From Candidatus Doudnabacteria bacterium RIFCSPHIGHO2_01_48_18 (GTDB lineage: Bacteria; Patescibacteriota; Doudnabacteria; UBA920; 2-01-FULL-46-14): a stretch of 64,000 bases of DNA. Shown here one piece after another: positions 3,576 through 36,250 of this stretch. Position numbers and translations under genes: made by a program. The first letter of the stretch is position 1. Each line of letters starts with the position of its first letter. The notes below the pieces were generated by a model. That model searched no databases, was not told the origin of the DNA, and was given only the letters and a program-made list of their open reading frames with translations. Location of the stretch: the NCBI GenBank assembly GCA_001777515.1, contig MFEF01000003.1, positions 53,423 to 117,422 on the forward strand. The letters are read 5' to 3'.

Positions 3576-3587
3576 AGATACGTGATC

Positions 3588-3625: not shown

Positions 3626-3670
3626 GCAAATATCATTTACTGTTTGTGCAAACTATTTAGAACGTGGATT

Positions 3671-6362: not shown

Positions 6363-6821
6363 ATGATTCGCGAATCAGAAACCGGGCATTTTCGCCCGGG
6401 TGAAACAAAACCATCGCTGGAAAATTTGCAGCAACAATACGCGCAAAAGCTGCTCGAGAGGGAAACAGCAAGAATCAATTATCAGCGCGCTATCGAGGCG
6501 GGTGTGCGATTGCACAATCGCCTGCTTGATGATTTGGGATCAAAAGAAATCAAAACTGAAATGGCAAAGCTCGAGAAGGAGCGCGTAGCCGCGGCAGAAC
6601 GCCTTGGCGGCCTCAAGGCAGAGGTTAACAGTATCACTGATGAAATCACTGCTCTCGCCGGAGCCGATGCCGATGACAAAATTAATGACACTGGTTTATT
6701 TATAGTTGAAGAGTTTAAAAAACTTCTCAAAACTGATCCGGCCAAAGCCATTGAGCTTTCAGCCGGCAACGAATATTTGGAAAAATTAAGGCTCATGGCT
6801 GAAGAGCTCAACCAAAAATAA
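6363..6821 (+). CDS. Hypothetical coiled-coil protein
   Basis: 152 aa, helical/charged, no recognisable domain. Confidence 0.5.
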   Translation: MIRESETGHFRPGETKPSLENLQQQYAQKLLERETARINYQRAIEAGVRLHNRLLDDLGSKEIKTEMAKLEKERVAAAERLGGLKAEVNSITDEITALAGADADDKINDTGLFIVEEFKKLLKTDPAKAIELSAGNEYLEKLRLMAEELNQK

Positions 6822-7078: not shown

Positions 7079-7184
7079 TAAATCCAGCACCTTCCTGTCG
7101 GGGTATTGCACCCCGCAGGAAGGCTATATTGAGCCATTCATCCCCGCAGCAAGCTGCGGGGTATTCTGGAAGGTGCTGGATAAA
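7079..7184 (+). mobile_element. MITE-like 98-bp structured element (copy 1). 13-bp TIR TCCAGCACCTTCC, flanked by TAAA on both sides.
   Basis: Identical to the copies at 9017, 15728 and 20480 (reverse). Contains internal GC hairpins (CCCCGCAGCAAGCTGCGGGG). Confidence 0.7.
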
Positions 7185-7402
7185 ATTGGCTGCGACCAAC
7201 AACATAACTAATAGGTTAGGAAAAAGTTTTTTCGCTGTCATGTATATATTGTGGCCTTCAAATCTAAAACTTCGTTACAAAAACGATTGAGGCGCTGGAA
7301 CAGCCCGGATCGCAGGTTTCTATCGAATTTTTTGACGATATCTGAAATAATTTTGGATTTTTGCACATTTAGCTTTACTGTGGACCGCGCTATACTTAGC
7401 GT

Positions 7403-7639
7403 ATGGATTCCAAGGTGAAAATCTTGATTACAGCAGTGCTGCTGATATTGCTGCCCGTGGCATCGTGGTTTATCTGGCGCGCGGTACGAGAGAAGTCGCA
7501 ACAGGCAAATCCGCCTTCTCCTTCTCCGCAGCAAGCTGTGGTACCCCAGACCACACCTGAACAAATTTTTCCTGCCTCTCCCACGCCAGCAGCTGAGCCG
7601 TCGCCGATACCCCCGCGAACCGGACGCGACAAAAATTAG
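7403..7639 (+). CDS. Small membrane-anchored Pro-rich protein (78 aa)
   Basis: An N-terminal TM helix is followed by P/S/T-rich low-complexity sequence. The overlapping antisense 150-aa ORF is Arg/Cys-rich and not protein-like. Confidence 0.3.
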   Translation: MDSKVKILITAVLLILLPVASWFIWRAVREKSQQANPPSPSPQQAVVPQTTPEQIFPASPTPAAEPSPIPPRTGRDKN

Positions 7640-7672
7640 TTTTAAAATGTTTATTTTATCAGTCCAATTCGG

Positions 7673-9019
7673 ATGTGGTATAATAAACATAGAATGATTT
7701 TGAATGTAAAAAAATATTTTTTACGCTTTATGTTGCTCGCGATTGCCGTCAGCATGATTTCTTTGTCATCTGCAAACGCACAACTCGACAAGCAGCAGGA
7801 AAAAGATCAGCTGCAGCAGCAGCTCAGAGATATTGAAAATCAGATTGCTGCATATCAAAGGGAGCTGGGTCAAATCAAAGGTCAAAAAAATACTCTGCAA
7901 AACAAAATCAACCAACTGAAAAAACAGCAGGCCGCGTTGGGACTGCAGATCAAGGCCACGACATTACAGATTGATGATTTGGATGTCCAGATTACGATGA
8001 CGCAGGAATCGATTGATCGTAACACCGCAAAAGGTGTTGAGCTTAAACAGCAGCTTGCAGAATTTATACGGCTCATCAACGAAAAAGATGGCACCCCCCT
8101 TTTGCTGGCAGTTCTTTCGCAAAACAATTTTTCCGACGTTTTAAACCAGCTGGTGTATTACTCGGAACTCAGTGAAGGCTTGCATTCGATTCTCGAAGAA
8201 ATAAAACAGACAAATGGCGCGCTCGCGCAGGACAAGCAGAAATTTGAAGATAAACAAGGCCAGGCCAGAAATTTATTATCCATTCAAAGTATTCAAAAGG
8301 AACAGCTCGTAGATACTGAGAGTGAACAAAGGGTCTTGCTCGACCAAACGCGCGGCCTGGAGAGTGAATACCAGGCGGTTCTCGGTAATACGCAAAAGAA
8401 AGCCGCCGAGATCAGAAACCGTCTTTACGAATTGACCGGCGCGACCGCCCAGGTTACTTTTGGCGAAGCTGTAGAAATTGCGAAATGGGCCAGCTCTCAC
8501 ACCGGCGTTCGCGCTGCCTTTCTGCTGGCGATTTTGACGCAGGAATCAAACCTGGGGAAAAACGTAGGAACATGCAATCGTGCCGGCGACCCGCCGGAAA
8601 AAAGCTGGCGGATGGTAATGAAACCGGACAGGGATCAGCAGCCATTTCAGCAAATTACAACAGATCTAGGGCTTGATATAGAGACTACGCCTGTATCATG
8701 CCCAATGCGCCAAAACGGCAAGCAGGTTGGCTGGGGCGGCGCGATGGGACCGGCCCAATTTATTCCTTCAACATGGATGGGTTACAAAGATAAAGTCGCG
8801 GCGATTACTGGAAAAACCGCGGACCCCTGGGATATAAAAGACGCGTTTTTGGCCTCAGCCATAAAACTGAAAGCAGGCGGAGCAGGAACAGTTCAGGGTG
8901 AATGGGCGGCAGCCATGCGTTATTTTTCTGGCGGTACCAATCCCCGATTTCGGTTCTACGGCGATAACGTGGTCGCCACCGCGAACCGCTACCAGCAAGA
9001 TATTGACGCGTTAAAATAA
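7673..9019 (+). CDS. Secreted coiled-coil protein fused to a C-terminal lytic-transglycosylase (SLT)-like domain
   Basis: Signal/TM region, a ~250-aa Q/K-rich coiled coil, then a C-terminal LTQESNLG...GPAQFIPSTW (SLT-like G-x-MQ-F-MP-STW). Confidence 0.7.
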   Translation: MWYNKHRMILNVKKYFLRFMLLAIAVSMISLSSANAQLDKQQEKDQLQQQLRDIENQIAAYQRELGQIKGQKNTLQNKINQLKKQQAALGLQIKATTLQIDDLDVQITMTQESIDRNTAKGVELKQQLAEFIRLINEKDGTPLLLAVLSQNNFSDVLNQLVYYSELSEGLHSILEEIKQTNGALAQDKQKFEDKQGQARNLLSIQSIQKEQLVDTESEQRVLLDQTRGLESEYQAVLGNTQKKAAEIRNRLYELTGATAQVTFGEAVEIAKWASSHTGVRAAFLLAILTQESNLGKNVGTCNRAGDPPEKSWRMVMKPDRDQQPFQQITTDLGLDIETTPVSCPMRQNGKQVGWGGAMGPAQFIPSTWMGYKDKVAAITGKTADPWDIKDAFLASAIKLKAGGAGTVQGEWAAAMRYFSGGTNPRFRFYGDNVVATANRYQQDIDALK

Positions 9020-9122
9020 ATCCAGCACCTTCCTGTCGGGGTATTGCACCCCGCAGGAAGGCTATATTGAGCCATTCATCCCCGCAGCAAGCTGCGGGGT
9101 ATTCTGGAAGGTGCTGGATAAA
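9017..9122 (+). mobile_element. MITE-like element (copy 2), inserted at the stop codon of the preceding gene
   Basis: 100% identical 98-bp core. The left TAAA overlaps the TAA stop at 9017-9019. Confidence 0.7.
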
Positions 9123-9137
9123 CATTGAAAGAAACTG

Positions 9138-9166
9138 TTGACTTTTTGCTATATAAAGGCTACAAT
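9138..9166 (+). promoter_or_regulatory. Sigma70-like promoter TTGACT-17-TACAAT
   Basis: Near-consensus hexamers with 17-nt spacing. It drives a ~200-nt unit that ends at the terminator at 9340. Confidence 0.45.
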
Positions 9167-9244
9167 GAACTGCTAATGTCTCATTCGAGACAATCACGAG
9201 TCATGACGGTCGGGGCACCATAACCAGGAAAGGACATCATCACC

Positions 9245-9328
9245 ATGGACGAGATTAAAAACCAGGAAGCCAAACCAGAGGAAATAAAAACTCCGGAAGC
9301 GGCTGCGGCAACAGAAGAAACTAAATAA
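9245..9328 (+). CDS. sORF, 27 aa acidic peptide (MDEIKNQEAKPEEIKTPEAAAATEETK)
   Basis: AGGAAAGGA RBS 9 nt upstream, and the ORF sits between a strong promoter and a terminator. Not in the ORF track (<60 aa). Confidence 0.3.
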   Translation: MDEIKNQEAKPEEIKTPEAAAATEETK

Positions 9329-9339
9329 TTTCTTGTTGT

Positions 9340-9372
9340 AAAAACACCCGCCTTTGGCGGGTGTTTTAATTG
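9340..9372. terminator. Bidirectional intrinsic terminator (ACACCCGCC-TTTG-GCGGGTGT with flanking A/T runs)
   Basis: A perfect 9-bp GC stem. It terminates both the sORF unit and the convergent ABC operon. Confidence 0.65.
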
Positions 9373-9374
9373 TG

Positions 9375-10052
9375 TCATGCCACCTTCGAATCTTCAATAA
9401 TTTGTCCGTCCTTCAGGTTAATAACTCGCTGCGCGTATTTCGCGTAGTCATCCTCATGAGTAATCATGACAATAGTCTGGCCGTTTTTATGCAAATCAAG
9501 AAAGGCTTGCATCACGACATGACCGTTGGTCGAATCGAGGTTGGCCGTCGGTTCGTCAGCGAAAAGAATGGTTGGGTGATGAGCGATTGCTCTGGCGATC
9601 GAAACTCTCTGCTGTTGTCCACCGGATAACTGACTCGGCAGGTTGTGCATTCTGTCCGAGAGTCCAACCCTGGCCAGGGCACCTTCAGCCTGTTTATACG
9701 CAGCTTCTCTTGAATGTCCCTGCATTAGCATTAACAAAGCTACATTCTCGAGCGCTGTTAATTCAGGTAGAAGTGCGTAATCCTGAAAAACGTAACCAAG
9801 CATGTTAAGCCTCATGGCAGTCTTTTGCACTTGGGACAGTTCAGAAGTCTTAATACTATCCAGAAATACTTCGCCAGACGAAGGTTCGTCAAGAAGCGAG
9901 AGCTGATAAAGCAGGGTTGATTTCCCCGCGCCGGACGGACCAGTAACAGCTACGAACTCGCCGGAATCGATTTTTAGATCGATACTTCTCAAGACCTTGA
10001 CCTCGAGTTCTCCTGATCCATATGTTTTTGTAAGATTTTGCACTTCGATCAT
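9375..10052 (-). CDS. ABC transporter ATP-binding protein (MacB/LolD/FtsE-like)
   Basis: Walker A GPSGAGKST, signature LSGGQQQR, Walker B ILFADEPT. Confidence 0.9.
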   Translation of the reverse strand: MIEVQNLTKTYGSGELEVKVLRSIDLKIDSGEFVAVTGPSGAGKSTLLYQLSLLDEPSSGEVFLDSIKTSELSQVQKTAMRLNMLGYVFQDYALLPELTALENVALLMLMQGHSREAAYKQAEGALARVGLSDRMHNLPSQLSGGQQQRVSIARAIAHHPTILFADEPTANLDSTNGHVVMQAFLDLHKNGQTIVMITHEDDYAKYAQRVINLKDGQIIEDSKVA

Positions 10053-10053
10053 T

Positions 10054-11355
10054 TTATCTCCCTAATATAGAGTCAAGTGTATTTTTTCGAACAATGAGCT
10101 TGGCCGGCAGATATCCGGCAATGATAGTTACAAAAATCAAAATCGCCACTCGAATCGCTGCGCCTGCTGGCGTAACCACCAGAATACCGTCGGAAAAAGG
10201 AAAATCTATCGGGTTATTTTTAAAATACGGCTCCAAAACTCCAAAGGTCAAAAGCAGGCCAACGAGCGATCCAGATAGCCCGTAAAATATCGCCTGGATC
10301 AAATAAGAAAACTGCACTGCTGCGGGACTAATACCTACACCCTTCATGATGCCAATGAGCTTTCGTTTGGTGACTGCGTTGATGTAAATCACGATAAAGA
10401 TCGTAATCGAGGCCACAACCAACGCTATCGAGGACAATGCGTTTCCTAGTACACCCATTGTGCTCTCGATATCACGCAGGAACTGCGGGATTGCGTCAAG
10501 GCTCGTTTGTGTGCGCGCGGCGCTGGACCCCATGAACCCGTTAATATCAGCCACGAGCGCCTCCGCGTACGACGGCTCTGTCCGGATCGCGATTTCCTGA
10601 AAATGTTCTTTGTTTATGGAAAGCAGGGATTTCAAATCCGCGCCGGTGACAAAAACTCTTGTCGAGATTTCATCGACTTTGCTTTTGACAATGCCTTTTA
10701 CAATAAATTCTTTGACAATCAGCGTTCCTCCGCCTTTTGAGGTGACAGTAACGCGGACTCTGCTGCCGACGTCTACGTCAGCCAAAAGATCAAGTCCGGG
10801 AATATTTGCGTCAGCGAAAGATGAGTATTTTTTTAACAGATTTGCCCCGATTAGCATATAGCCAGATTCATCGCCATCCAGCATGCCGCCTTGCGTGACC
10901 GAAGAAGCAAAATTGGTGACCAATGCTTCTTTCTCCGGATCCAGTCCTTTTATGGCAGCCCCCATTTGGTTTGGGCGTTCATTGCTGCGCGGCAGGCTCG
11001 TAAGGGTGCCGAGTATCGTCCCGCTTGTCTGGTAACGGGGTGAAAAAGCTTTTACCTGACTGTGGCTCTCCAAGAACGAAACTAATCCCGGTGAATTTTC
11101 TATATAGTCCCTGCCTGGCGCGGAGGTTACGATGACCTCGCCTGAATGGCTTTCGCGGAATTGTTCAAATGATCCACTGATGAGGCCTAAAAGTAGCCCT
11201 GAAACTACTACCAGATTAAGGAAAGTTAAAACCATGATAAAAATGATGAGCGCTGTCGTCCATTTGCTTGAACGGCGGATCTGCCGGACAGCCAAAAACC
11301 ACCCGACTCGGAAGCCAAACACATACTCCTTCAGGAGCTTGGGCAGGGATTTCAT
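10054..11355 (-). CDS. ABC transporter permease, FtsX/MacB-like
   Basis: 433 aa with an N-terminal TM helix, a large periplasmic domain and a C-terminal FtsX 3-TM bundle. Confidence 0.85.
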   Translation of the reverse strand: MKSLPKLLKEYVFGFRVGWFLAVRQIRRSSKWTTALIIFIMVLTFLNLVVVSGLLLGLISGSFEQFRESHSGEVIVTSAPGRDYIENSPGLVSFLESHSQVKAFSPRYQTSGTILGTLTSLPRSNERPNQMGAAIKGLDPEKEALVTNFASSVTQGGMLDGDESGYMLIGANLLKKYSSFADANIPGLDLLADVDVGSRVRVTVTSKGGGTLIVKEFIVKGIVKSKVDEISTRVFVTGADLKSLLSINKEHFQEIAIRTEPSYAEALVADINGFMGSSAARTQTSLDAIPQFLRDIESTMGVLGNALSSIALVVASITIFIVIYINAVTKRKLIGIMKGVGISPAAVQFSYLIQAIFYGLSGSLVGLLLTFGVLEPYFKNNPIDFPFSDGILVVTPAGAAIRVAILIFVTIIAGYLPAKLIVRKNTLDSILGR

Positions 11356-11363
11356 GTCAATAT

Positions 11364-12938
11364 TTATTTGGTATCAGCATTAGTGAGGATCTCTCCGCCC
11401 TCCTCGAGACCGGAAAGGATTTCAGCGAGGCCGCCGTCGGACACCATGCCAACAGTTATTTCTCTATCCTCGGATGTTCGTTTAATCGGATCAGTAATAA
11501 CTGAAGCATACCTGCGACCGTCCCGGGCAAACACCGCTCTGTTCGGAATCGAGAGCGCGTTTGGCCGATGTTCAACCATTATCACCATGTTGGCGGTCAT
11601 GCCAGGTTTGATGTCTAAATTCTTTTCGATCAAAACCTTGATTTTGTAATTCACCACTCCGGAGACAATCGTGGAGGCTGGGTCGATAAACTGTACCGTT
11701 CCATTGTATATTTTTTCATGAAGAGCATCAAAATCGATCTTAACGTTCTGGCCAATCCGCAGTTTGGAGATATCAGCCTCGCTGATGTTCGATTCAAGAT
11801 AAAGATTGCCTACATCTTGCAAAGCAATCGCTGCGCCTAACGCTGCTCCCTGCTCCCCGGCATGAATATCGACTGAAGTGATTGTGCCTGACACCGGTGA
11901 TCTTATCACTGTATTTTCCAAAGCGGTCGTAGCCGATTGCACTTGGGCCTCGGCTGACAAAATAGCGGCTCTGGCTGCTTCGATCTCTGATGGACGCGCA
12001 GTTGCTTTCTTGAGGTTGAGGTCTGCGTTTTTTTGGTCAACCGCAGCTTTAGCAGACGCCACTTTGTTTTCTGCCGCACTTTTTGAAGTCCTTTGGGTCT
12101 CCAAGGCGGCAAGATAAGCATTGTAGTTAGCAACATAACTTGATGAAGTTTTGTTTGGCAACCGGATCACCCATTCGTCAATCTGCGAAAAATTTCCAGT
12201 TAAACTAAATGTGGCATACAAGCCTTTGGTGCCTATCGCGAGCGGCACGCCTCGCGTTATGATTTTTTGGTCGTTTTCCAATCCTTGAACTTGCAAATAA
12301 AATGAACTGTGTCCCGTTCCCTGGAGCTTGACGCGGTATTCCCCTTCTTCTTGCCCTGCGTATGTTCCAGTTACGGTCAATGTTGCGCTTGTGTCAAAAT
12401 GAGTAATAGCGATCGGTTCAGTATCAGTATTCAACAATTTTCTATATGCATTTTCTACAAGAACTTTTTGCTCTGTTATGGTATCTTCCAAATCAATCTC
12501 CGCGTTCTTGAGCGAAATTTGCGCTGTGCGCAGCTCAGCTTCGACAATCGCTACCTCTTCCGTACGAGCTCCTTCCAAAACTTTTTGATAGTTAGCTTTA
12601 GCCTGAGCCAGAGCTCCTTGAGCGCTTTTTAGAGCAGCCAGTTCGCTTCCCTGATCGAGCTGCGCCAAAATCTGGCCCGGTCCGACCTGGCTGCCTACCG
12701 TAACATTTACGCCTCGGACAAAGCCGCTCGATTTAAATCCCAGCTTCAAATCAACAGCGCTAACGACTTTGCCGGTGGCTAAAACTGTCTGTGTTAAGTC
12801 CCGTCTTTGGACCTTTTCCGTTACTTCCTCGGATTTTCCATTGTGGCCGCCTTGCGACGCAAAAACGCCGCCGGCAATGAGCAACAGCAGAACAGCTGAA
12901 ATAATATATCGCTTTCGCAATAATGCTTTAAATCTCAT
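11364..12938 (-). CDS. HlyD/MacA-family periplasmic adaptor. The likely start is 12938 (MRFKALL...), because the longer ORF-track start at 12977 lies inside the upstream terminator hairpin.
   Basis: Signal anchor, long coiled-coil/lipoyl-like region, and C-terminal beta-barrel motifs of membrane-fusion proteins. Confidence 0.8.
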   Translation of the reverse strand: MRFKALLRKRYIISAVLLLLIAGGVFASQGGHNGKSEEVTEKVQRRDLTQTVLATGKVVSAVDLKLGFKSSGFVRGVNVTVGSQVGPGQILAQLDQGSELAALKSAQGALAQAKANYQKVLEGARTEEVAIVEAELRTAQISLKNAEIDLEDTITEQKVLVENAYRKLLNTDTEPIAITHFDTSATLTVTGTYAGQEEGEYRVKLQGTGHSSFYLQVQGLENDQKIITRGVPLAIGTKGLYATFSLTGNFSQIDEWVIRLPNKTSSSYVANYNAYLAALETQRTSKSAAENKVASAKAAVDQKNADLNLKKATARPSEIEAARAAILSAEAQVQSATTALENTVIRSPVSGTITSVDIHAGEQGAALGAAIALQDVGNLYLESNISEADISKLRIGQNVKIDFDALHEKIYNGTVQFIDPASTIVSGVVNYKIKVLIEKNLDIKPGMTANMVIMVEHRPNALSIPNRAVFARDGRRYASVITDPIKRTSEDREITVGMVSDGGLAEILSGLEEGGEILTNADTK

Positions 12939-12953
12939 AGGACAGTAATAATA

Positions 12954-12990
12954 ACAAAAAAACCGCCTTTTTATCAAGGCAGGCGGTTTT
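12954..12990 (-). terminator. Intrinsic terminator after gene 12992-14044 (AACCGCCT...AGGCGGTT stem, T-run on the minus strand)
   Basis: 8-bp stem with a 12-nt loop; the A-run at 12954-12960 is a T-run on the minus strand. Confidence 0.45.
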
Positions 12991-12991
12991 G

Positions 12992-14044
12992 CTACTGATA
13001 CTGTATATAAACTGGAATAGGAACGAGCTTTAGCAGGTCAGCCGGCAAAAGCAAGGTGCTTCCCGGCCTGCGGAGATCGTTTTTATAAAATAGCTTGAAA
13101 CCCGTAAACTGCACCGGCTCTTTGGAAATAAACTGCTTGTAAGTGTTGATTTTGTTTGGCTGGCCGCCAAAGCCGTCCATATTTATGACAATCTGCGCCT
13201 CAGGTAAAGGATTAACATTTCGGTAATTGGTCAGCATCTTTTGCGTAAAACGGTGAACTACAATGATTTTTGGGGGTAAATTATTTTTTCTCACTATTTC
13301 AGCAAGGTAGTTCGCAGCAAAATTGATATCAGTCGCGTCCAAGGATCCGATCGCTGTGCCAGGCGCAGCTCCGTTTTTCATGGCAAATTCAGGATCAACG
13401 CCTAAATGCACATGGGGAAGCTTTAAGTATTTTTCTAACCGAGGTAACTCAATCTGTAAATTACTAAGCCCGGCTTGAATATCCAAAAATACGATACCCT
13501 GAATTTTCTCCGCCATCTTGAGCACCTTATCTATTTCTTTGTCTGGCATTCGTGCGCGGTATTTGCCGTCGGCTCTGGGACCAGCTTGCGCCACCACGGC
13601 AATATAATGAAGCGCGGGAACAACAGGCGTGGCCGGGTCTGCGGTCTCCCATTTTTTTGCTTCTGCCTGCAGCATGTCAAGCATTTGATGCTCAGGGTAT
13701 TCACCGAGTACCCCCATGCCTTTCGAGTAAAGATTGCCATAATACGCGACGATACGGTTGAAAGGAAGTATTGCTCCCGCCTTGGGATAAACCGTTTTCA
13801 CGGGCCAGAGTGCGGGCGGCGTAGATGACGGACTTCCCGCGATTTCGTATAGCTTTTTGTCATAAGCATCAAAATCAAGTTTTGGATGTTGGTCTGCCGA
13901 CGTCTCCGGCACTGCCACAGTTGGGGCAATTTTTATCGAACGAAAATAGAGGCTAGCCAAAAATAACGCCATCAAAAAAAACAACAGCGCCAAAACTCCG
14001 CTTTTCGCCACGTATCTTGGTTGAATTTTTAAATTGTGTTTCAT
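12992..14044 (-). CDS. Hypothetical membrane-anchored extracytoplasmic protein (possible TIM-barrel hydrolase-like)
   Basis: 350 aa with an N-terminal TM helix and alternating beta/alpha patterns (IVFLDIQ, HLGVDPEF, IIVVHRF). No confident family assignment. Confidence 0.45.
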   Translation of the reverse strand: MKHNLKIQPRYVAKSGVLALLFFLMALFLASLYFRSIKIAPTVAVPETSADQHPKLDFDAYDKKLYEIAGSPSSTPPALWPVKTVYPKAGAILPFNRIVAYYGNLYSKGMGVLGEYPEHQMLDMLQAEAKKWETADPATPVVPALHYIAVVAQAGPRADGKYRARMPDKEIDKVLKMAEKIQGIVFLDIQAGLSNLQIELPRLEKYLKLPHVHLGVDPEFAMKNGAAPGTAIGSLDATDINFAANYLAEIVRKNNLPPKIIVVHRFTQKMLTNYRNVNPLPEAQIVINMDGFGGQPNKINTYKQFISKEPVQFTGFKLFYKNDLRRPGSTLLLPADLLKLVPIPVYIQYQ

Positions 14045-14334
14045 TGCGTTTTATTGCAACTCCACTATAACCTCTTTTCACAAAAACAACTAAAATTTGC
14101 CAGTCCCCACGATCTTGATTTCCTTGCCCAAAATCAGAGCTTCGGAAACCTTTTTGTATGCTGAGGTGAGGATCGGTTGAAAAGTACTTGCGGCCGCGGT
14201 TTGATCGAGATTTTTCAAATTTTTTAAGCGCAAAGCCTCGGCTTCTTCAGCCGTAATCTCGACACAGCGCCGAGGAAACCGAGGCCATAGAGGCCGCTGG
14301 AAGCACCGTGTGATTTCATAATTTAATTAATTTA

Positions 14335-14541
14335 TTACGAGCTCTTGTATTCCAAAACATCGCCAGGCTGACAATCTAAAGCTTTGCAAATCGCTTCCAG
14401 GGTTGAAAGCCTTATCGCTTTGGCTTTGCCATTTTTCAATATGGAAATATTTGCCATTGTGATGCCAACCTTTTCCGCAAGGTCAGTGACACTCATTTTC
14501 CTTTTGGCCAGCATCACATCAATGTTGATTACTATCGGCAT
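14335..14541 (-). CDS. XRE-family HTH transcriptional regulator (YozG-like)
   Basis: 68 aa with the HTH motif MSVTDLAEKVGITMANISILKNG. Confidence 0.8.
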   Translation of the reverse strand: MPIVINIDVMLAKRKMSVTDLAEKVGITMANISILKNGKAKAIRLSTLEAICKALDCQPGDVLEYKSS

Positions 14542-14551
14542 ATTATTCTGT

Positions 14552-15043
14552 TTAGACCGTTAAATCGTTTTCAGATTTTATATCTACGGCGCTTTGTAAA
14601 AGTTTTTCAAAAACAGCTGCCGCGGTGGCAATTACGACAGAAATAAAAGTAGCTACAAGAGCCACGGCAATAAAACCAGCCGGATCATCATCTGTAACTG
14701 ATTTAACTGAAAATGATAGCCTTATATATATTGCTGCCATCACAATTAGGATGCTCAGTGCGATTGCGCAATATTTAATAGTCCTTAAAGCTTTCACAGA
14801 ATTCAGCGAGAATACTTTATTTTGCCCGATGTATCCGAGTAATTTGAACGCTTGATATAGCGCAACAAAAAATGGGATAGATGCCAGGTACCCATACACG
14901 ATGAACGGATCAGAGTAAATACTGAACAGGTCTAAATTTACGGCTCTCCCCTCGGTCAGGGGAAACCGAATCATGACCGCAAGTGTCACGATTCCGATCA
15001 GTACAATTACAACCTTTAGAAAAATTGTTGAACCCCGTTTCAT
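14552..15043 (-). CDS. DUF2975-like 4-TM membrane protein (partner of YozG-type regulators)
   Basis: 163 aa with four TM helices. Its position directly upstream of the XRE gene mirrors the yozG-yoaS arrangement. Confidence 0.5.
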   Translation of the reverse strand: MKRGSTIFLKVVIVLIGIVTLAVMIRFPLTEGRAVNLDLFSIYSDPFIVYGYLASIPFFVALYQAFKLLGYIGQNKVFSLNSVKALRTIKYCAIALSILIVMAAIYIRLSFSVKSVTDDDPAGFIAVALVATFISVVIATAAAVFEKLLQSAVDIKSENDLTV

Positions 15044-15157
15044 AATAGAAGCTTAATGATTATGGACAACACAATATTAAACCACTATTTATCGTTTGTC
15101 AATATATTGTTATCGTTATTTAATATTTTTCCACAAGGTATTTATATAGCGCTTTCG

Positions 15158-15184
15158 CAAAATTTAAACCGCCTTTCGGCGGCT
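15158..15184 (-). terminator. Intrinsic terminator after the small gene 15213-15452 (CCGCC-GAAA-GGCGG plus T-run on the minus strand)
   Basis: GNRA-looped 5-bp GC hairpin followed by TTTAAATTTT on the minus strand. Confidence 0.4.
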
Positions 15185-15212
15185 AGTTGAATACAATACT
15201 CTTGATACTAAC

Positions 15213-15452
15213 CTAAAAATCGAGTTTTATCCCAACCTTTTGAGCAATTTTCTGAAGTGCTTCTTCGTGACGTTTTAGTGCATGTCTCATGGCAGACATT
15301 TCTTGAAAATAAGTATCGGCTTTCTTAGCGTAGGCATCAACCGAAGACTGCAAATTTGAAAACATCTGTTCAATCCGCGCGAAATCTTCTTTGGTAGTAA
15401 AAACTTCTCGTTCAGCTTCTATTAATTTTTGAATATCTTCAGTGGTCAACAT
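15213..15452 (-). CDS. Small coiled-coil protein, paralog family member P1 (79 aa)
   Basis: Homologous to 16670-16879 (ML-T-EDI-KL ... FS-LQ--VDAYA) and more distantly to 17184-17417. Confidence 0.55.
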   Translation of the reverse strand: MLTTEDIQKLIEAEREVFTTKEDFARIEQMFSNLQSSVDAYAKKADTYFQEMSAMRHALKRHEEALQKIAQKVGIKLDF

Positions 15453-15586
15453 AGTATCTCCATTATAAATCTTGGTTTGAAAGTGTCAATTATACCCAAT
15501 TCTAATAACACTTTCTAAGGGCGATTTTCTAATTCAATGCCCCGGGTGAACAATTTAGCCGCAACTATAAACGGCGATTGAGCCAT

Positions 15587-15628
15587 TTCACCCACTGTAC
15601 AATTCTACCGAATTGTACAGTGGGTGAA
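15587..15628. other. Perfect 19-bp-stem hairpin (TTCACCCACTGTACAATTC-TACC-GAATTGTACAGTGGGTGAA)
   Basis: Exact inverted repeat with a 4-nt loop, intergenic, not followed by a T-run. Confidence 0.5.
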
Positions 15629-15727
15629 ACTCATGCTTCGCTAATGTCCTTTGATTAGGGTCGCATAATTCGCAGTATTGGCACTGAGGAAGCGATAATA
15701 ATTTATATCTCGATTTTTGAAAAGAAA

Positions 15728-15833
15728 TAAATCCAGCACCTTCCTGTCGGGGTATTGCACCCCGCAGGAAGGCTATATTGAGCCATTCATCCCCGCAGCA
15801 AGCTGCGGGGTATTCTGGAAGGTGCTGGATAAA
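15728..15833 (+). mobile_element. MITE-like element (copy 3)
   Basis: 100% identical 98-bp core flanked by TAAA. Confidence 0.7.
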
Positions 15834-16013
15834 TTCCAACCAATAGAAACACAACGGTTGTGGAACAAGATCTTTGAATTTCCGCGTCAGATTTTTAACT
15901 TCTATAATGTTCGTTTTGTTTCTCAATTATTTTTGTAATTCTGGCATTGTGCGAAGTGTAACAAAGCCGCTCGTTAGGCGAAAGCTCAGAGTCTTCGACC
16001 TTTCGGCGGCTAG

Positions 16014-16316
16014 TTATTTATTCTTCCGAGCGAGTAGGGCAAAGTGATTGAAGTACTTTTGCAATCCTTCGGGAAAACCCTTACAACTTATTTCTCGCAA
16101 ACGCAGCAATTCACGTTTCCGCCCCAAATCCCAACGTTCATCATTGATCGTGAGGTCGAGTAGTTCTAAAAATCTGGAGAGTGCCCCCTGAAACCTCGCT
16201 TCATCCTGGCGCCTTCTACTGCTCAAAATGCGACTGTATTCACTACCAACGTTTCCCAGCTGATCGGCAATGGACATTTGCTGCCACCTGCCAGTGGCAA
16301 GTTTTGAGTGCATCAT
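16014..16316 (-). CDS. Hypothetical basic (Arg-rich) all-alpha protein. Downstream member of an overlapping two-gene module.
   Basis: 100 aa. Its start overlaps the stop of 16313-16660 by 4 bp. Confidence 0.5.
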   Translation of the reverse strand: MMHSKLATGRWQQMSIADQLGNVGSEYSRILSSRRRQDEARFQGALSRFLELLDLTINDERWDLGRKRELLRLREISCKGFPEGLQKYFNHFALLARKNK

Positions 16317-16660
16317 TTGACAAGAGAGTTAACTATTTCTTTGAGTTTTTTCTGAATGTCAGGATCTTCTACTGTATTGGAAAGATTGCCATGCGCTGGC
16401 CGCAGATTAATCATTGAGTCAAACTCAATCCATGAATCGCGCGGCTCATTGACATAAATGTTTATGCCCCACAGATTTTCCTGCTTACTGCCGTCGTGAA
16501 GCAGCACTGCTTCCTCGTCAGCATGCAGCTCTCCCGCGAGCGCCATTATTTTGCGCTCAATATCAACGACAGCTTTGACCATATCGCCGAAGCCCTCTTT
16601 GGCCGATTCTTTTAGCCTATCAATCGATACTGAATCTGTGATTATTTCAATCTTATCCAT
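16313..16660 (-). CDS. Hypothetical acidic protein (115 aa). Upstream member of the two-gene module.
   Basis: Good coding periodicity; ATGA overlap with the downstream gene. Confidence 0.5.
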   Translation of the reverse strand: MDKIEIITDSVSIDRLKESAKEGFGDMVKAVVDIERKIMALAGELHADEEAVLLHDGSKQENLWGINIYVNEPRDSWIEFDSMINLRPAHGNLSNTVEDPDIQKKLKEIVNSLVK

Positions 16661-16669
16661 CTAGCTAAT

Positions 16670-16879
16670 TTAATTCGTATGGGTCGCATTGTGCGGGATG
16701 TTGAAACTATTTTTACGAATAGGTCTTGCATACGCGTCTACGGCCGCCTGCAAATCCGAAAACGACTCGTGCATCGCATCGAATTTTGTATCAAGCTCCA
16801 CTCGGGTTGCAAATACTTCTGTTAGTTTTTTTATATCTTCGTCTGTGAGCATGGATTCATTAAAACCTACCTTAAACAA
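16670..16879 (-). CDS. Small protein, paralog family member P2 (69 aa, C-terminally divergent/truncated)
   Basis: The N-terminal 45 aa align with P1. It starts 31 bp downstream of the tRNA-His 3' end. Confidence 0.45.
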   Translation of the reverse strand: MFKVGFNESMLTDEDIKKLTEVFATRVELDTKFDAMHESFSDLQAAVDAYARPIRKNSFNIPHNATHTN

Positions 16880-16909
16880 ATACAGTCAATGTAGCCTCAA
16901 ACCCATTTT

Positions 16910-16986
16910 TGGGGTGGGTGACGGGTTTTGAACCCGCTGCCTCCGCTGCCACAGAGCGGCGCTCTACCGATTGAGCTACACCCACC
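16910..16986 (-). tRNA. tRNA-His (GTG), with G-1 and encoded CCA
   Basis: Manual fold: 8-bp acceptor stem including G-1:C73, D-arm GCTC/GAGC, anticodon loop CTGTGGC, T-loop TTCAAAA. Confidence 0.9.
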
Positions 16987-17183
16987 ATATTAGAAATAAA
17001 AAACTCTTACACAGCTATTGTAAGAGGATGCGGCACCTGCTGTGTCAGGTAAGGTTCATTGTAAACCTAAAGTAATTCTAGCTCTTTTTCGCGGAAATGT
17101 CAACCTCGCCATTTGTTAACATAAGCCAAAAAATAAAAAATGGCTTGCTTTAGCCATTGTAAAAACGCTTGTTTATTGGGCTT

Positions 17184-17417
17184 TTAAGGCTGCTTAACTT
17201 TCGCTATTCCCGTGTGCTTTTCCAAAACTGCAACACGCTTTTCTAGTGCCTGCATTTCAAAGCGATAAGCAGCTTGATCCAAGCGGAGTTTAATATCTTC
17301 CTGGCCTGTTTCGAGCTTATCAAGCCGTTCGTCTACCTCATTAAATCTTTCATCAATACCATCAAAGCCTTTTTTCATCATCACGGCCAAATCTTCATTT
17401 GTAATTTTCTTTTCCAT
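17184..17417 (-). CDS. Small coiled-coil protein, paralog family member P3 (77 aa)
   Basis: Shares the N-terminal EDL/EDI motif; charged coiled coil. It lies ~210 bp downstream of tRNA-Arg. Confidence 0.5.
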   Translation of the reverse strand: MEKKITNEDLAVMMKKGFDGIDERFNEVDERLDKLETGQEDIKLRLDQAAYRFEMQALEKRVAVLEKHTGIAKVKQP

Positions 17418-17627
17418 ATTCTCAAGTTAATCTAAATGTTTTGAAATGTCAATTATCTTTCAAGCTGTTTGCAATTGAAAAGCCTAATCTGCTTCCACAT
17501 AGGATATCTCGAATAGTGCTTCACGTAAAACATCTGTTTGTTTTTAATGCTGTCCTGCTTCGCTAAAGCTTCGCAGGACACTTCTCCGCGTACCGTGCAC
17601 TTCGTAGCTCCATAAGGAGCGGAGAAG

Positions 17628-17702
17628 TGGTATCCCCGGTAGGAATCGAACCTACATATCCGGCTTAGAAGGCCAGTGTTCTATCCATTGAACTACGGGG
17701 AC
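17628..17702 (-). tRNA. tRNA-Arg (TCT), CCA encoded
   Basis: Manual fold: acceptor GTCCCCG/CGGGGAT, anticodon loop CTTCTAA, T-loop TTCGATT. Confidence 0.9.
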
Positions 17703-17916
17703 CTATATCAAATCTATAACACTTTACCATTTTTCACAAAGAATTTCAAGCGTTTGCAATCTTCAATTGGTACTGTTCTACAAAAAGCGGGCATTTCCAA
17801 AAAACAAAAAATTATGTTCCTAATAATTGTTCATTTGCCTATCAGCGGAAACAAAACCGCTGAGCATACTAGTAAAGCATTATTCATACTTAATCATCGG
17901 GGGAGGTGAAAAAATT

Positions 17917-17976
17917 ATGGAAAGAGAAGGTCAAAAAGGCCAGGGCCAGCAAGGCGGCCAGAGCGACAATCAGTAA
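17917..17976 (+). CDS. sORF, 19 aa Gly/Gln-rich peptide (MEREGQKGQGQQGGQSDNQ)
   Basis: Strong RBS GGGGGAGGTG 6-8 nt upstream; terminator hairpin 45 nt downstream. Confidence 0.25.
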   Translation: MEREGQKGQGQQGGQSDNQ

Positions 17977-18020
17977 TCTCGAATTTCAAACCTAGAGTTT
18001 GGGAACGGAAGAGTTCAAAT

Positions 18021-18056
18021 CAAAACCCCTAGGGGACACCCCAGGGGTTTTGATTT
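18021..18056. terminator. Intrinsic terminator (AAAACCCCT...AGGGGTTTT stem plus TTTTGATTT)
   Basis: A 9-bp outer stem with a nested GGGG/CCCC hairpin, flanked by an A-run and a T-run (bidirectional). Confidence 0.55.
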
Positions 18057-18090
18057 GGCGCAATAGCACAAATCCTTGTATAATTGCTGC

Positions 18091-19530
18091 ATGAAACAAA
18101 GTGCAAAAGAACTCCTTGATCCGACAAATTTGGTTATATTTGGAGCGACCGGAGATCTGTCGCGGGGACGGCTCATCCCGGCACTGTACCGTCTGCACGA
18201 GAGGAAATTGTTGCCCCGGTCATTCCATATCATAGGATTCGCGCGCAGTGAATTTTCCCATGAAGAATTTCGCAGTCAGGTCAAAATTTCTTCCGAAGAA
18301 TGGCAGGCATTCGCAAAAAAAATCTTCTACTCACCGGGTAATTTCGGAAACGACCGTGATTTCACAAAACTCGCGAATTTTCTGACCAAGCTTGAATCAA
18401 AAAAACATAACTGCGCAAACCGTTTATTTTATTTCGCCACGCTACCGAGCCACTATCCCACGATTTCCCATGCCCTGGATAAATCAGGTCTGCTGAAGGG
18501 CTGCGCTATCCACAAAAGGCAGACCAGAGTTGTTTTGGAAAAGCCGTTTGGCGCAGATCTACCGTCCGCGCGCAAACTCGATAAAACCCTGAATAGCTAT
18601 TTTTCCGAAGACCAGATATACCGCATTGACCATTATCTTGGCAAAGAAACTGTGCAAAACCTTTTGACTGTCCGCTTTGCCAACAGTATTTTTGAACCGC
18701 TGTGGAACAAAAACTTCATTGATCATATTCAGATTTCGGCCCTGGAGGAGCGTGGCATCGACAGACGGGGCGCATTTTATGAACAGACCGGAGCAATACG
18801 CGATTTCATGCAAAACCATCTGATGCAGCTTTTGGCCCATATTGCCATGGAGCCGCCGCAGGATCTCTCCACGGAATCGATTCGGGACGAGCGAGCCAAA
18901 GTAATAAAAGCTATAAAAATGCCTACGGCCGCCGATCTCAAAGAAGCACTGGCGATCGGACAGTTTGAAGGGTACCGCAAAGAGCCAGATGTCCATCCTC
19001 GGTCGCGTACAGAGACCTATGCCGCAGTCAAACTATTTGTTGATAACGAACGCTGGATGGGTGTTCCCTTTTATTTGCGCACCGGGAAAAAACTTAAATC
19101 CAAATTTACCGAGGTTTCGATCCATTTCAAAAAAAGCTCGCCAGATATTTTCCAAATGAATTCGGAAATTCCCAATGTTCTTTCGTTTGAGATCCATCCG
19201 AACGAAGGAATTTTTTTGAATATCTCGGCCAAAGATCCCGGTTTTGGCATCAGGCTGCATCCAGTGACCATGGAACTTGGATATCATTCCGCTTTCCAAG
19301 GCGAGTTTCCCGAGGCTTATGAACGGTTGCTCCTCGATTTCATCGAAGGTGACCAGCGTTTGTTCACGCGGGGCGACGAGATTGAACATTCCTGGAAATA
19401 TATCGACGAAGTTGAAAAATATATCACTAAGACAATGCCCCGGGTTGAAATTTATAGACCTGGTAGCTGGGGACCGAATACCGCAGAACAATTAATGAAA
19501 AAGGATAAAAAACAATGGCACATCGCCTGA
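18091..19530 (+). CDS. zwf: Glucose-6-phosphate 1-dehydrogenase. The ORF track starts at TTG 18076; the ATG at 18091 is preferred and probably leaderless, behind TGTATAAT.
   Basis: NAD(P)-binding VIFGATGDLSRG; G6PD signature RIDHYLGKE. Confidence 0.9.
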   Translation: MKQSAKELLDPTNLVIFGATGDLSRGRLIPALYRLHERKLLPRSFHIIGFARSEFSHEEFRSQVKISSEEWQAFAKKIFYSPGNFGNDRDFTKLANFLTKLESKKHNCANRLFYFATLPSHYPTISHALDKSGLLKGCAIHKRQTRVVLEKPFGADLPSARKLDKTLNSYFSEDQIYRIDHYLGKETVQNLLTVRFANSIFEPLWNKNFIDHIQISALEERGIDRRGAFYEQTGAIRDFMQNHLMQLLAHIAMEPPQDLSTESIRDERAKVIKAIKMPTAADLKEALAIGQFEGYRKEPDVHPRSRTETYAAVKLFVDNERWMGVPFYLRTGKKLKSKFTEVSIHFKKSSPDIFQMNSEIPNVLSFEIHPNEGIFLNISAKDPGFGIRLHPVTMELGYHSAFQGEFPEAYERLLLDFIEGDQRLFTRGDEIEHSWKYIDEVEKYITKTMPRVEIYRPGSWGPNTAEQLMKKDKKQWHIA

Positions 19531-20450
19531 GCGTCGGCATACTCGGCCTCGGCCGCATGGGCGCGCAAATAGCCCGCAGACTGCACAAAAACAATATCAA
19601 TGTTATTGCCTGGAACCGGAGCCCCGGTCCCAGAGAAGAATTCTCCGCCATAGGCGGACTGACGGCCGAAAGCCCGACTGAATTGATAGAGAAGTTGTCG
19701 GCCGCCGGCAGCCCAAAGATTGTGTGGCTGATGCTCCCGGCAGGTGGCCTGGTTGATGAATTTCTATTCGGGCCGAAGGCCCTAAGCTTGTCGAAAGGCG
19801 ACGTTGTCATTGACGGCGGTAATTCTTTTTACCGCGATTCGCAGCGACGCGCCAAAAAACTGGCAGAGAACGGCATCCATTTCTTTGACAGCGGCACTTC
19901 TGGCGGAGTCTGGGGAGAGAAAAACGGCTTTTCTATCATGGTTGGCGGTCCAGCACCAGTTTTCCCTGTCATCGAACCGATTTTCAAAGTTCTCGCAGCA
20001 GGCAATGGCAACAGTTACGGTTTAGTTGGAAAAACTGGTGCTGGACATTTCGTGAAAATGGTCCACAACGCAATCGAGTACGGCATGATGGAAGCAATTG
20101 CTGAAGGCTTTGGAGTACTCAGGGCATCAGAGTTCAAAGACCTCGATTTCTCGCAGATCGCCCACATCTGGAGCAAAGGTTCAGTGGTGTCCTCCTGGCT
20201 CGTGGATCTGGCCAAAAATATTTTTGATACGGAAAACCTCGACAATGTCGTCGGCTATATCCATCACACGGGAGAAGGCAAATGGACTATCGATGAGGCA
20301 AAACGACTCGGCGTCAGCGTCCCAGTCATGGAAGATTCCTTCCGCGTTCGCATGGAATCGGAAAAGCCCGAAAATCAGGAAATTTTTTCCAACAAAATAG
20401 TTGCCTTGCTGCGAAAGCAGTTTGGCGGTCATGAAGTAAAATACAAATGA
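19515..20450 (+). CDS. gnd: 6-phosphogluconate dehydrogenase-like, short form (YqeC/Gnd-like, NAD(P)-binding)
   Basis: 311 aa with an N-terminal Rossmann fold ILGLGRMGAQIARRL; overlaps the zwf stop by 16 nt (operon). Confidence 0.8.
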   Translation: MAHRLSVGILGLGRMGAQIARRLHKNNINVIAWNRSPGPREEFSAIGGLTAESPTELIEKLSAAGSPKIVWLMLPAGGLVDEFLFGPKALSLSKGDVVIDGGNSFYRDSQRRAKKLAENGIHFFDSGTSGGVWGEKNGFSIMVGGPAPVFPVIEPIFKVLAAGNGNSYGLVGKTGAGHFVKMVHNAIEYGMMEAIAEGFGVLRASEFKDLDFSQIAHIWSKGSVVSSWLVDLAKNIFDTENLDNVVGYIHHTGEGKWTIDEAKRLGVSVPVMEDSFRVRMESEKPENQEIFSNKIVALLRKQFGGHEVKYK

Positions 20451-20479
20451 CTGACCATGAAAAATCCCAAATCTGACGC

Positions 20480-20585
20480 TTTATCCAGCACCTTCCAGAA
20501 TACCCCGCAGCTTGCTGCGGGGATGAATGGCTCAATATAGCCTTCCTGCGGGGTGCAATACCCCGACAGGAAGGTGCTGGATTTA
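20480..20585 (-). mobile_element. MITE-like element (copy 4, reverse orientation)
   Basis: Reverse complement is 100% identical to copies 1-3; flanked by TTTA/TAAA. Confidence 0.7.
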
Positions 20586-20752: not shown

Positions 20753-21364
20753 CTATCTCCAAAGTACCGCACGAGCAGGGGACCCATCCCCTGCTTTGAT
20801 TTTGAGGGGGAGAACAGCGAGATTGTAACTGCCTGGCTTTATTTTGGACAAATCCAAACCTTCGACATTGACGATTCCGGCGGAAAGCAGGGTTTTATGA
20901 ACCGGGTGTCCTGGCGCGCTTTTGGCTTCTATCCCGAGATAATCCGTGCCGACCAAAGCGATTTTCTTTCGTGCCAAGTGCCTAGCGCCATCAAGCGACA
21001 AAGAAACGTAGTCAGCGGTAAATTTGCCTTTCTTGTAAAGCCCTGAGTTGCGGGTCTTAAACAGGATGCGCTCGCCTTTTTGAATTTTAAGTTTTTCTAG
21101 GTCACTGGAAGTAATCAGATTTTTCGCGTTTATTTCCACAATCCTTGCTGGTCCCACGAGTTTTGTCAGGGCGATTTTATCCACTCCTGATTTGTTAAAT
21201 AAAAAGTGCTTTGGCGCGTCAACATGCGTTCCAGTGTGCGTGGACATTATGAGCTGAGAAACAATCCCCGAACCTTTCTTTTCCAAACGGATGAATTTCG
21301 TGTCTCCCGGCCAGGGAAACGTCGAGTTATCGAGGCTCAGGCTAATATCAAAAAATTTCGGCAC
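20753..21364 (-). CDS. Cyclase-family protein (kynurenine formamidase-like)
   Basis: Metal-binding motif HTGTHVDAPKHF typical of the putative cyclase/arylformamidase family. Confidence 0.8.
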   Translation of the reverse strand: MPKFFDISLSLDNSTFPWPGDTKFIRLEKKGSGIVSQLIMSTHTGTHVDAPKHFLFNKSGVDKIALTKLVGPARIVEINAKNLITSSDLEKLKIQKGERILFKTRNSGLYKKGKFTADYVSLSLDGARHLARKKIALVGTDYLGIEAKSAPGHPVHKTLLSAGIVNVEGLDLSKIKPGSYNLAVLPLKIKAGDGSPARAVLWR

Positions 21365-36242: not shown

Positions 36243-36250
36243 CTCAAATC

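Follow-up and report, generated by a model that had tools for sequence, protein, structure and literature searches.

A previously undescribed 98-bp MITE-like family with unusual polarity, recently amplified in Candidatus Doudnabacteria

[quoted passage not shown] The window is ordinary chromosomal DNA in its gene content, carrying zwf, gnd, holA, dusB, a MacAB-like exporter and type IV pilus genes together with a nonulosonic-acid glycan cluster and four tRNAs. Its Gnd protein recurs with 100% identity on 24 metagenome contigs and has its closest named relatives in Candidatus Doudnabacteria, the lineage of the candidate phyla radiation (CPR, or Patescibacteria) to which the host belongs. Three copies of the repeat lie on the plus strand (7079-7184, 9017-9122 and 15728-15833, with the element proper at 7083-7180, 9021-9118 and 15732-15829) and the fourth is reverse-complemented (20480-20585, element 20484-20581); the wider limits take in a TAAA on each side of every copy, read on the minus strand for copy 4. 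The 98-mer is identical letter for letter across the four, and its ends are perfect 13-bp terminal inverted repeats (TIRs), paired at 7083-7095/7168-7180, 9021-9033/9106-9118, 15732-15744/15817-15829 and 20484-20496/20569-20581. The window contains eight occurrences of the 13-mer TCCAGCACCTTCC, which make up these four inverted pairs; shuffled sequences give an expectation of 0.09, and none of 100 reached eight. An earlier note, made from the sequence alone, had described these four identical copies, their TIRs and their TAAA/TAAA flanks, and the 13-mer pairs and a direct reading of the four sites bear it out on each count. A repeat search of the window carries the identity to 109-111 nt, comprising AAAATAAA, the 98-mer and TAAA; the bases beyond the 98 nt are the preferred A-rich target and lie outside the element.

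All four window copies are intergenic, and no reading frame stays open for at least 60 codons on both sides of any of them. Copy 1 falls between open reading frames (ORFs) at 6363-6821 (plus strand) and 7238-7690 (minus strand). The left TAAA of copy 2 supplies, as had been noticed before, the TAA stop codon of ORF 7673-9019, which encodes a coiled-coil/SLT-like protein; 20 nt downstream of this copy, in unique flanking sequence, is a good sigma-70-like promoter match (TTGACT-17-TACAAT, 9138-9166), a predicted promoter that points to the convergent ABC-ATPase gene region. Copy 3 sits where the earlier note had placed it, amid small ORFs upstream of the tRNA-His/tRNA-Arg region, and copy 4 lies between the 3' ends of gnd (19515-20450, plus strand) and a cyclase/arylformamidase gene (20753-21364, minus strand). 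A family covariance model, which gives copy 1 a score of 105.8 bits, recovers just these four copies and no decayed ones in the window. Their clustering at 7-21 kb follows from the concentration there of intergenic DNA and of AATAAA sites, since 14 of the 21 intergenic AATAAA sites in the window fall within 0-24 kb, as does two thirds of its intergenic DNA.

In its predicted fold, the element has three hairpins enclosed by a closing stem of 13 bp. Taking copy 1 as reference (plus strand), the left TIR TCCAGCACCTTCC at 7083-7095, which grows to 14 bp once the A of the adjoining TAAA is counted in, is followed by hairpin 1 at 7096-7117 (TGTCGGGG-TATTGCA-CCCCGCA). The unpaired motif CCATTCATCC at 7134-7143, kept in aligned variants from several phyla, separates the central hairpin from hairpin 3 at 7142-7161 (CCCCGCAGC-AA-GCTGCGGGG), and the right TIR GGAAGGTGCTGGA closes the element at 7168-7180. 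The predicted fold is very stable relative to shuffled controls, both as RNA (-61.1 kcal/mol, z = -7.7) and as single-stranded DNA (-35 kcal/mol, z = -8.3). RNAalifold on the raw MAFFT alignment recovered the arm stem only; in a covariation test on 33 distinct variants with the hairpins entered by hand, 82-85% of cells in hairpins 1 and 3 were still paired, and two-sided changes appeared in 12 hairpin pairs, where shuffles gave 7.1±1.7 and 0 of 500 reached 12, with all slid registers scoring worse. Compensatory changes affect six of the seven pairs of hairpin 1 and six of the nine pairs of hairpin 3 (helices 3 and 4), and together with the predicted fold they uphold the internal hairpins that had been read from the letters.

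Just inside both arms the 11-nt motif TGCGGGGTATT appears in direct orientation, its first copy formed by the 5' arm and loop of hairpin 1 and its second by the 3' arm of hairpin 3 with TATT (7155-7165). The two copies co-vary, with 16 shared departures from consensus where 5.7 are expected (0 of 2000), and this subterminal direct repeat gives the element an internal polarity; arm order is swapped between hairpins 1 and 3, which therefore do not correspond to each other as hairpins of a left and a right end. The open frames of the element are read-through frames only, and nothing in it codes for a transposase. Three of its six frames are open throughout, which is about the chance level for a GC-rich 98-mer, and the element plus four flanking bases makes 102 nt, or 34 codons. 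We considered whether such frame-preserving lengths (98+4=102, 101+4=105) are an adaptation and set the idea aside, as the pattern is suggestive and not significant when independent length changes are counted.

The window copies belong to a much larger family. A scan of metagenomes that demanded both exact arms returned 88 DNA stretches; in all, 118 copies have exact arms (89 public loci plus the window) and 132 have at most one mismatch per arm, at 83 distinct insertion sites, a lower bound for public metagenomes. The exact window 98-mer occupies 39 of these 83 sites, and the family comprises 44 distinct element sequences of 95-108 nt plus one 209-nt composite. On long contigs of the host species the density is about one copy per 13-20 kb. 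When the GTDB species genomes were searched with the opening 37 nt of the element, one diverged copy came to light, in another Doudnabacteria metagenome-assembled genome (MAG), with TAAA on both sides. Some members (loci L003, L004 and L011/L012) join identical arms to unrelated interiors and keep TAAA, so the arms seem sufficient for membership.

Host placement by exact look-up of neighboring proteins assigns the 100-101-nt variants and L003 to Candidatus Magasanikbacteria, a 104-nt variant to Nitrospirota MAGs and a 107-nt variant to Syntrophaceae/Thermodesulfobacteriota-type contigs, the latter two variants having an extended hairpin 3 in common. The family therefore crosses phylum lines among groundwater and sediment organisms, and the identity of roughly 75-80% (an estimate, not a computed value) of a 98-nt non-coding sequence across phyla implies horizontal transfer. 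Two loci carry unusual arrangements of the arms. At L005:3624-3731 (Ga0315276_10057372), a complete tRNA-Val(GAC) is enclosed by the same 13-bp arms plus two further paired bases, flanked by TTCA/TCAA, not TAAA, on a GC-rich contig with rplS and genes for a pseudouridine synthase and a CCA-adding enzyme. Capture of the tRNA by a family member is one explanation; the other is that the arms double as a processing stem. At L030:3633-3841, hairpin 3 of the 209-nt member encloses a further palindromic element, the ends of which (CCCAGCACCTTTTCTAC/GTAGAAAAGGTGCTGGG) are related to the arms and not identical to them.

Evidence that the element moves comes from an all-versus-all comparison of flanks, which yielded one filled/empty pair: two tandem pilin-like paralogs on L039, identical but for 98 + 4 bp. 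The empty paralog has a single TTTA (TAAA on the element strand), and in the filled one the frame meets a TGA inside the element, splitting the pilin-like gene. The added 102 bp fits target duplication and a shared recombination core alike and cannot distinguish between them. Furthermore, a sister species whose Gnd is 83% identical lacks the element throughout its syntenic 20-kb gnd region, in which the window species has two copies. The 39 identical copies and this absence from the sister species together point to a recent burst in this lineage, and on these grounds the recent amplification in trans that the earlier note had claimed holds up. We therefore regard the repeats as, very probably, a non-autonomous mobile element moved in trans. 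Since members with unrelated interiors keep arms and TAAA, the enzyme would be one that recognizes the arms, the element itself encoding nothing. A restored empty site would be predicted to read, for example, GGCAAGGCAAAAATAAAATTGGCTGCG for copy 1 and CGTTTTGCCAGAATAAATTCTACGGCG for the uvrC insertion described below.

The four window copies are intergenic, as the earlier note had it, but this does not extend to the family, in which six sites have a long open frame on both sides (L035, L076, L065, L077, L022 and L051). At L035 the element lies in uvrC, giving a 629-aa UvrC with INPAPSCRGIAPRRKAILSHSSPQQAAGYSGRCWI ahead of the conserved WPxPDLIxIDGGKGQL, and the Pfam match to the RNase H endonuclease domain spans the 34-aa insert; NCBI annotates this protein in Candidatus Doudnabacteria bacterium RIFCSPHIGHO2_02_FULL_48_21 (GCA_001777695.1). 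The domain match likewise spans the insert in a DUF3800 protein (L076), domains flank it on both sides in a GmrSD/HNH nuclease (L065), and in a transglutaminase-like protein (L077) the match (residues 30-125) lies upstream; the two remaining ORFs (L022 and L051) are unannotated, with no Pfam match. A search with three element-encoded peptides returned mostly short spurious ORFs, plus a 178-aa RecX whose in-frame insert lies between the second and third helical domains; INPAPSCRGIAPR would be an example of a predicted peptide across the UvrC and RecX inserts. The peptides are repeat artefacts in the window, as previously suggested, but the same peptides stand in frame in real UvrC, RecX, DUF3800 and GmrSD/HNH proteins of this organism. 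Both the uvrC and the recX insertions are present in every sampled allele.

An AlphaFold model of the UvrC (shallow alignment, mean pLDDT 64) renders residues 451-489 as a low-confidence coil between confidently modeled elements, and UvrC homologues have linkers of variable length at the position of the insert. Three homologues (P0155, P0157 and P0159, alignment columns ~515-560) have unrelated low-complexity inserts in the same linker, for example VSLRGAKQRSNLKNEIATQPVAARND, which suggests that it is a recurrent landing site for other palindromic repeats in CPR lineages. Overall, intragenic copies make up about 10% of sites in genomes that are about 90% coding; either selection purges most insertions into genes, or AATAAA at gene ends is preferred. 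For the host, the consequences would be 34-aa in-frame protein loops and, at gene ends, strong RNA stem-loops that may stabilize or terminate transcripts. A separate effect on annotation is seen at L013:3679-4716, where the element frame lengthens the apparent start of an L-lactate dehydrogenase (345 aa versus 309 aa in NCBI, Magasanikbacteria MAG); this extension is an artefact caused by the repeat.

Across the 83 sites, the six bases to the left of the element read A (73), A (76), T (83), A (76), A (76) and A (83), and the first four to the right T (83), A (77), A (77) and A (82), with no constraint beyond +4. The target is thus AATAAA, conserved on the left side only. T(-4), A(-1) and T(+1) are invariant at 83 of 83 sites and A(+4) at 82, exceptional sites included, making the arms effectively 14 bp. 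When copies are oriented by their interiors, 76 of the 81 orientable sites are flanked by TAAA/TAAA, two by TTTA/TTTA and one (the diverged copy at L008) by TATA/TATA, with single-base differences at the other two. The two TTTA/TTTA sites (L030 and L060) have flanks that match AATAAA on the opposite strand; at L030 this is a second copy (2302-2400) of opposite polarity. That TAAA is either duplicated or strictly preferred, as first proposed, agrees with these 76 sites, with the single TAAA of the empty site and with the TATA/TATA variant; copies elsewhere have exact boundaries, not the variable ones that the earlier note had named as an argument for a REP/terminator-type repeat.

The covariance model clearly tells the two strands apart (105.8 versus 33.2 bits). 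Copies face their neighboring genes in mixed orientation, and the polarity accordingly refers to the target and does not reflect transcription or selection by gene context; selection as a terminator is rejected as its cause on the same ground. A simple terminator scan did not call the element, its loop limit of 3-8 nt being one that cannot see it. Orientation relative to local GC skew is 28:12, or about 2:1.

The search for a mobilizing enzyme or a parent insertion sequence (IS) covered the window, about 0.9 Mb of flanking loci and several public collections. No transposase or integrase domain was detected by Pfam in window ORFs of at least 100 aa, in accord with the earlier statement that the window lacks a transposase, and the tables of genes for four further contigs of this organism list no mobilizing enzyme. 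In the ~0.9 Mb of loci we found no solo or long-range TIR pairs, and a crude regular-expression scan of open stretches of 90-400 aa found no HUH/Y1 motifs there, nor was any ORF resembling the REP-associated RAYT transposases seen (REP, repetitive extragenic palindromic). A similar pattern for serine recombinases returned nothing from the loci, although it was too strict and missed the known recombinase of L095. An IS with matching TIRs, which the earlier note had proposed to look for, was absent from the window, the ~0.9 Mb of loci, the GTDB genome hit and the plasmid, phage and IMG/VR collections.

Strain-variable islands do hold recombinase genes. Upstream of zwf, strains of the same species (L095:1-7407 and L096:3-1520) differ from the window at ~9.5-17 kb by an island that replaces the exporter and small-gene region and encodes an OLD-family nuclease-like ATPase and a 532-aa large serine recombinase; downstream, L097 differs by a CCA-adding enzyme, an Exo_endo_phos gene and an Xer-like tyrosine recombinase. 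Nothing ties the recombinases of L095 and L097 to the element.

Several known sources and classes were considered and rejected. A phage origin finds no match in 50,697 phage records and no paired-arm copies in IMG/VR, where fifteen 17-mer matches are chance hits inside phage coding genes without a partner arm; a plasmid-borne IS or MITE finds no blastn match in PLSDB. A tRNA-derived (SINE-like) origin is set aside given that ARAGORN makes no call, that the interior is unlike the tRNA-Val of L005 and that the window tRNAs have no such arms. Integron attC sites, imperfect palindromes found in cassette arrays beside intI, end in the R''/R' core sites RYYYAAC...GTTRRRY, not in TCCAGC.../...GCTGGA plus TAAA as here, and the copies are dispersed among housekeeping genes. 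Rfam gives no family at gathering or E-value thresholds for the window and variant loci (best sub-threshold 12-14 bits). In the literature, the arm sequences appear only as unrelated PCR primers, and the search returned no paper linking MITEs with CPR lineages.

How the element moves, and whether it moves at all, can be read in several ways. It is very improbable that the repeats are immobile, that is, a REP/REPIN-like or regulatory structured repeat (a terminator, a small RNA gene or an element for RNA stability) whose copies gene conversion or selection keeps identical, TAAA belonging to the repeat unit itself. Such a repeat would account for the strong, conserved fold with compensatory changes, for the stem followed by UUUAUUU on the element minus strand, which is intrinsic-terminator-like, for the position of all four window copies at gene 3' ends and for a population of one master sequence plus few variants, as in REPINs. 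The empty paralogous site and the insertions into coding sequences (uvrC, recX and the split pilin-like gene) are hard to square with it, as are the mixed gene orientation, the lack of an Rfam match, the spread over unrelated phyla and the absence from the syntenic region of the sister species; the conversion-maintained, REP-like alternative raised in the earlier note is disfavored accordingly. A REP/REPIN-RAYT system in particular was rejected on the in-frame and disruptive intragenic insertions, the 4-bp repeat at the empty site and the lack of any RAYT-like ORF. Mobility once granted, perfect TIRs and a 4-bp flanking direct repeat with a one-copy empty site are what a classical MITE would leave, namely an internal-deletion derivative of a DDE-type IS with the same 13-bp TIRs, cut and pasted in trans with a 4-bp staggered cut that duplicates TAAA at T-W-W-A, its polarity stemming from asymmetric TGCGGGGTATT binding sites or another bias. 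The TATA/TATA variant, the two reversed insertions that still fit AATAAA on the other strand, the dyad-symmetric T-NN-A flank pattern, the occurrence of both polarities on one contig and the same TIRs around unrelated interiors, as in MITE families from one IS, are all in keeping with this account. We nevertheless consider it possible but doubtful, as it sits poorly with a 76:2 polarity at a non-palindromic target of which only the left side is conserved, and no partner IS turned up in any of the collections searched. DDE transpososomes are two-fold symmetric, which leads to a symmetric target consensus and random orientation; near-absolute polarity at a non-palindromic target is the output of single-strand HUH transposases and of conservative site-specific recombinases. 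The 76:2 polarity and one-sided target thus favor a polar, non-DDE reaction. The IS200/IS605 type (HUH/Y1, PATE-like) would supply one, the 102-nt top strand passing through a single-stranded circle and inserting 3' of TAAA/AATAAA without duplication; recognition and guidance would fall to the subterminal hairpins and the motifs next to them. Strict polarity, a target conserved only 5' of the insertion point, covarying subterminal hairpins, a co-varying same-strand direct repeat at both ends, a very stable single-stranded DNA fold and the modest GC-skew bias all suit this type. We still judge it improbable, in that the TIRs, which that family lacks, are the best-kept feature here and persist around unrelated interiors, the hairpins are of opposite arm polarity with only an 11-nt linear motif shared directly, it can take in the TATA/TATA variant and the reversed copies only by special pleading, and the crude HUH/Y-motif scan found nothing.

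On balance we lean toward a polar, non-DDE, non-autonomous element, and, taking mobility as given, a polar non-DDE mechanism is likewise the reading to which we give somewhat better than even weight. In the version that we prefer, the element would excise to a circle or abutted-end joint reading GGAAGGTGCTGGAT-AA-ATCCAGCACCTTCC, in which dyad 14-bp arms would surround an asymmetric AA core, resembling a recombinase crossover site; this joint would recombine with T-AA-A sites, and the core would set orientation. Judged by its letters, the predicted joint would have the architecture of a crossover site in its dyad arms and short asymmetric core. An alternative polar version is an IS200/IS605-like single-strand reaction, by which a 102-nt unit ending in TAAA would insert 3' of TAAA. 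Several points weigh against the polar reading. Perfect TIRs with a 4-bp direct repeat are the textbook signature of a DDE MITE, and the TATA/TATA variant would arise most simply from a staggered cut. The contig of L030 has related copies in both polarities, and the 28:12 skew bias is weaker than expected for single-strand transposition coupled to the lagging strand. The invariance of the arms is partly built in by the exact-arm scan, though the constancy of boundaries and flanks is not. The sole empty site is paralogous, not allelic, and the fetched strain contigs and protein-cluster members show no allelic empty site or insertion polymorphism. Furthermore, the ~0.9 Mb of flanking loci hold no mobilizing enzyme or longer element with the same ends, and the abutted-end joint (GGTGCTGGATAAATCCAGCACC) is absent from the loci and from IMG/VR.

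Perhaps, though this is rather unlikely, the family represents a distinct class that does not derive by deletion from a DDE insertion sequence: the 98-bp element would be a passenger with ends that, once abutted, make up a 14-2-14 crossover site, and it would be precisely excised, and integrated in a single polarity at AATAAA, by a recombinase of the host or of a mobile element, or by a hairpin-specific single-strand enzyme. If so, insertions, including the in-frame ones in uvrC and recX, would be potentially reversible, the spread from CPR to unrelated phyla would be accounted for, and the tRNA-Val of L005 would be a case of cargo capture.

Relative to described systems, the closest likeness in behavior is to the Rickettsia palindromic elements (RPEs), repeats of which many copies are inserted in frame in unrelated protein-coding genes with the ORF kept and that, for three of ten families, have nearly half of their copies within genes (PMC10969869). 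Both are palindromic repeats of ~100-150 bp in a reduced genome that add a conserved peptide in frame, a likeness of behavior only. The element described here differs in its exact 13-bp TIRs, AATAAA target, strict polarity and intragenic share of ~10%, and in its hosts, which are CPR and other groundwater phyla; no sequence kinship with RPEs is known, the searches bearing on this being those of Rfam, the phage and plasmid collections and the literature. Among short non-coding TIR elements, the Correia/NEMIS elements of Neisseria and ERIC form long stem-loops and occur in many copies, mostly at gene ends, and Correia elements duplicate a symmetric TA and insert in either orientation. The present family is like them in being short, non-coding, multi-copy TIR stem-loops, mostly at gene ends, with short flanking direct repeats, that are moved in trans, and unlike Correia elements in its asymmetric TAAA repeat, one-sided AATAAA, 76:2 polarity and lack of a detected parent IS.

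IS200/IS605 elements, PATEs and REPINs have no TIRs and make no duplication, and REPINs are extragenic. Like them, the family inserts in a polar fashion beside a short AT-rich tetra- or pentanucleotide and bears hairpins near its ends along with motifs on one strand at both ends, and like REPINs it has a dominant master sequence in the population; it departs from them in that TIRs define the element, copies lie inside genes and the crude scan of the loci detected no Y1 enzyme. Crossover sites of serine and tyrosine recombinases (hix/gix-type sites, Tn4451-TnpX and the eukaryotic Cryptons) would be matched by the 13-14-bp dyad arms, the asymmetric core, the joint-like target and a core flanking the integrated element. 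The known examples are autonomous, not 98-bp multi-copy passengers, and the likeness is one of architecture only, no linked recombinase, circular joint or arm-like target sequence having been found in our searches. The element is shorter than ~500 bp and non-coding, is bounded by TIRs, has a flanking 4-bp repeat that is single at the empty site and occurs as dispersed copies, all as in MITEs; an autonomous IS with the same TIRs is the one MITE hallmark that we did not find. It is best filed as a new, previously undescribed MITE-like family with unusual polarity, recently amplified, whose origin as a deletion derivative of an IS is unproven.

Beyond this family, the window has further features of interest. 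A long, operon-like cluster on the minus strand (36314-62497) encodes two NeuB genes, two CMP-sugar cytidylyltransferases, aminotransferases, a GDP-mannose dehydratase, a carbamoyltransferase and GNAT acetyltransferases, making up a nonulosonic-acid/glycan biosynthesis locus; the element is absent from it, and hardly any of it is intergenic. A second, 44-nt repeat family occurs at 2850-2893, 3586-3629 and 36249-36292. Two of its copies bracket ORF 2919-3575, a PaaX-like regulator with a Cas2-like middle domain, and the third, which forms an almost perfect palindrome of 38 nt (ATTCTACATCTATATGCAATTGCATATAGATGTAGAAT), sits a little way downstream of the 3' end of a glycosyltransferase gene (36314-38515, minus strand); these repeats look like candidate operator sites of the PaaX-like regulator. 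Finally, the T-arm/3' end of tRNA-Lys(CTT) (23352-23427) contains AATCCAGCAC, equal to 10 nt of the left junction of the element; with a dozen or so 10-mer matches of this kind expected across the window, it is probably due to chance.

Genomes of CPR/Patescibacteria are ~1 Mb in size, streamlined and generally held to be poor in mobile DNA. Here, one CPR species carries dozens of identical 98-bp copies, some of them in DNA-repair genes that are still open. For the annotation of MAGs the element is a nuisance, giving rise to spurious ORFs, extended gene starts and assembly breaks. For the biology of these organisms it supplies 34-aa insertions to the proteins of a reduced proteome, which makes it a second natural case of the RPE phenomenon. 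Being shared with Magasanikbacteria, Nitrospirota and Syntrophaceae-type organisms of similar habitats, it also marks recent horizontal exchange of ultra-small bacteria with the rest of their communities. It is unusual for an element with perfect TIRs to insert with strict polarity at an asymmetric target, and if a non-DDE enzyme is responsible, the family would represent a new way of moving miniature elements.

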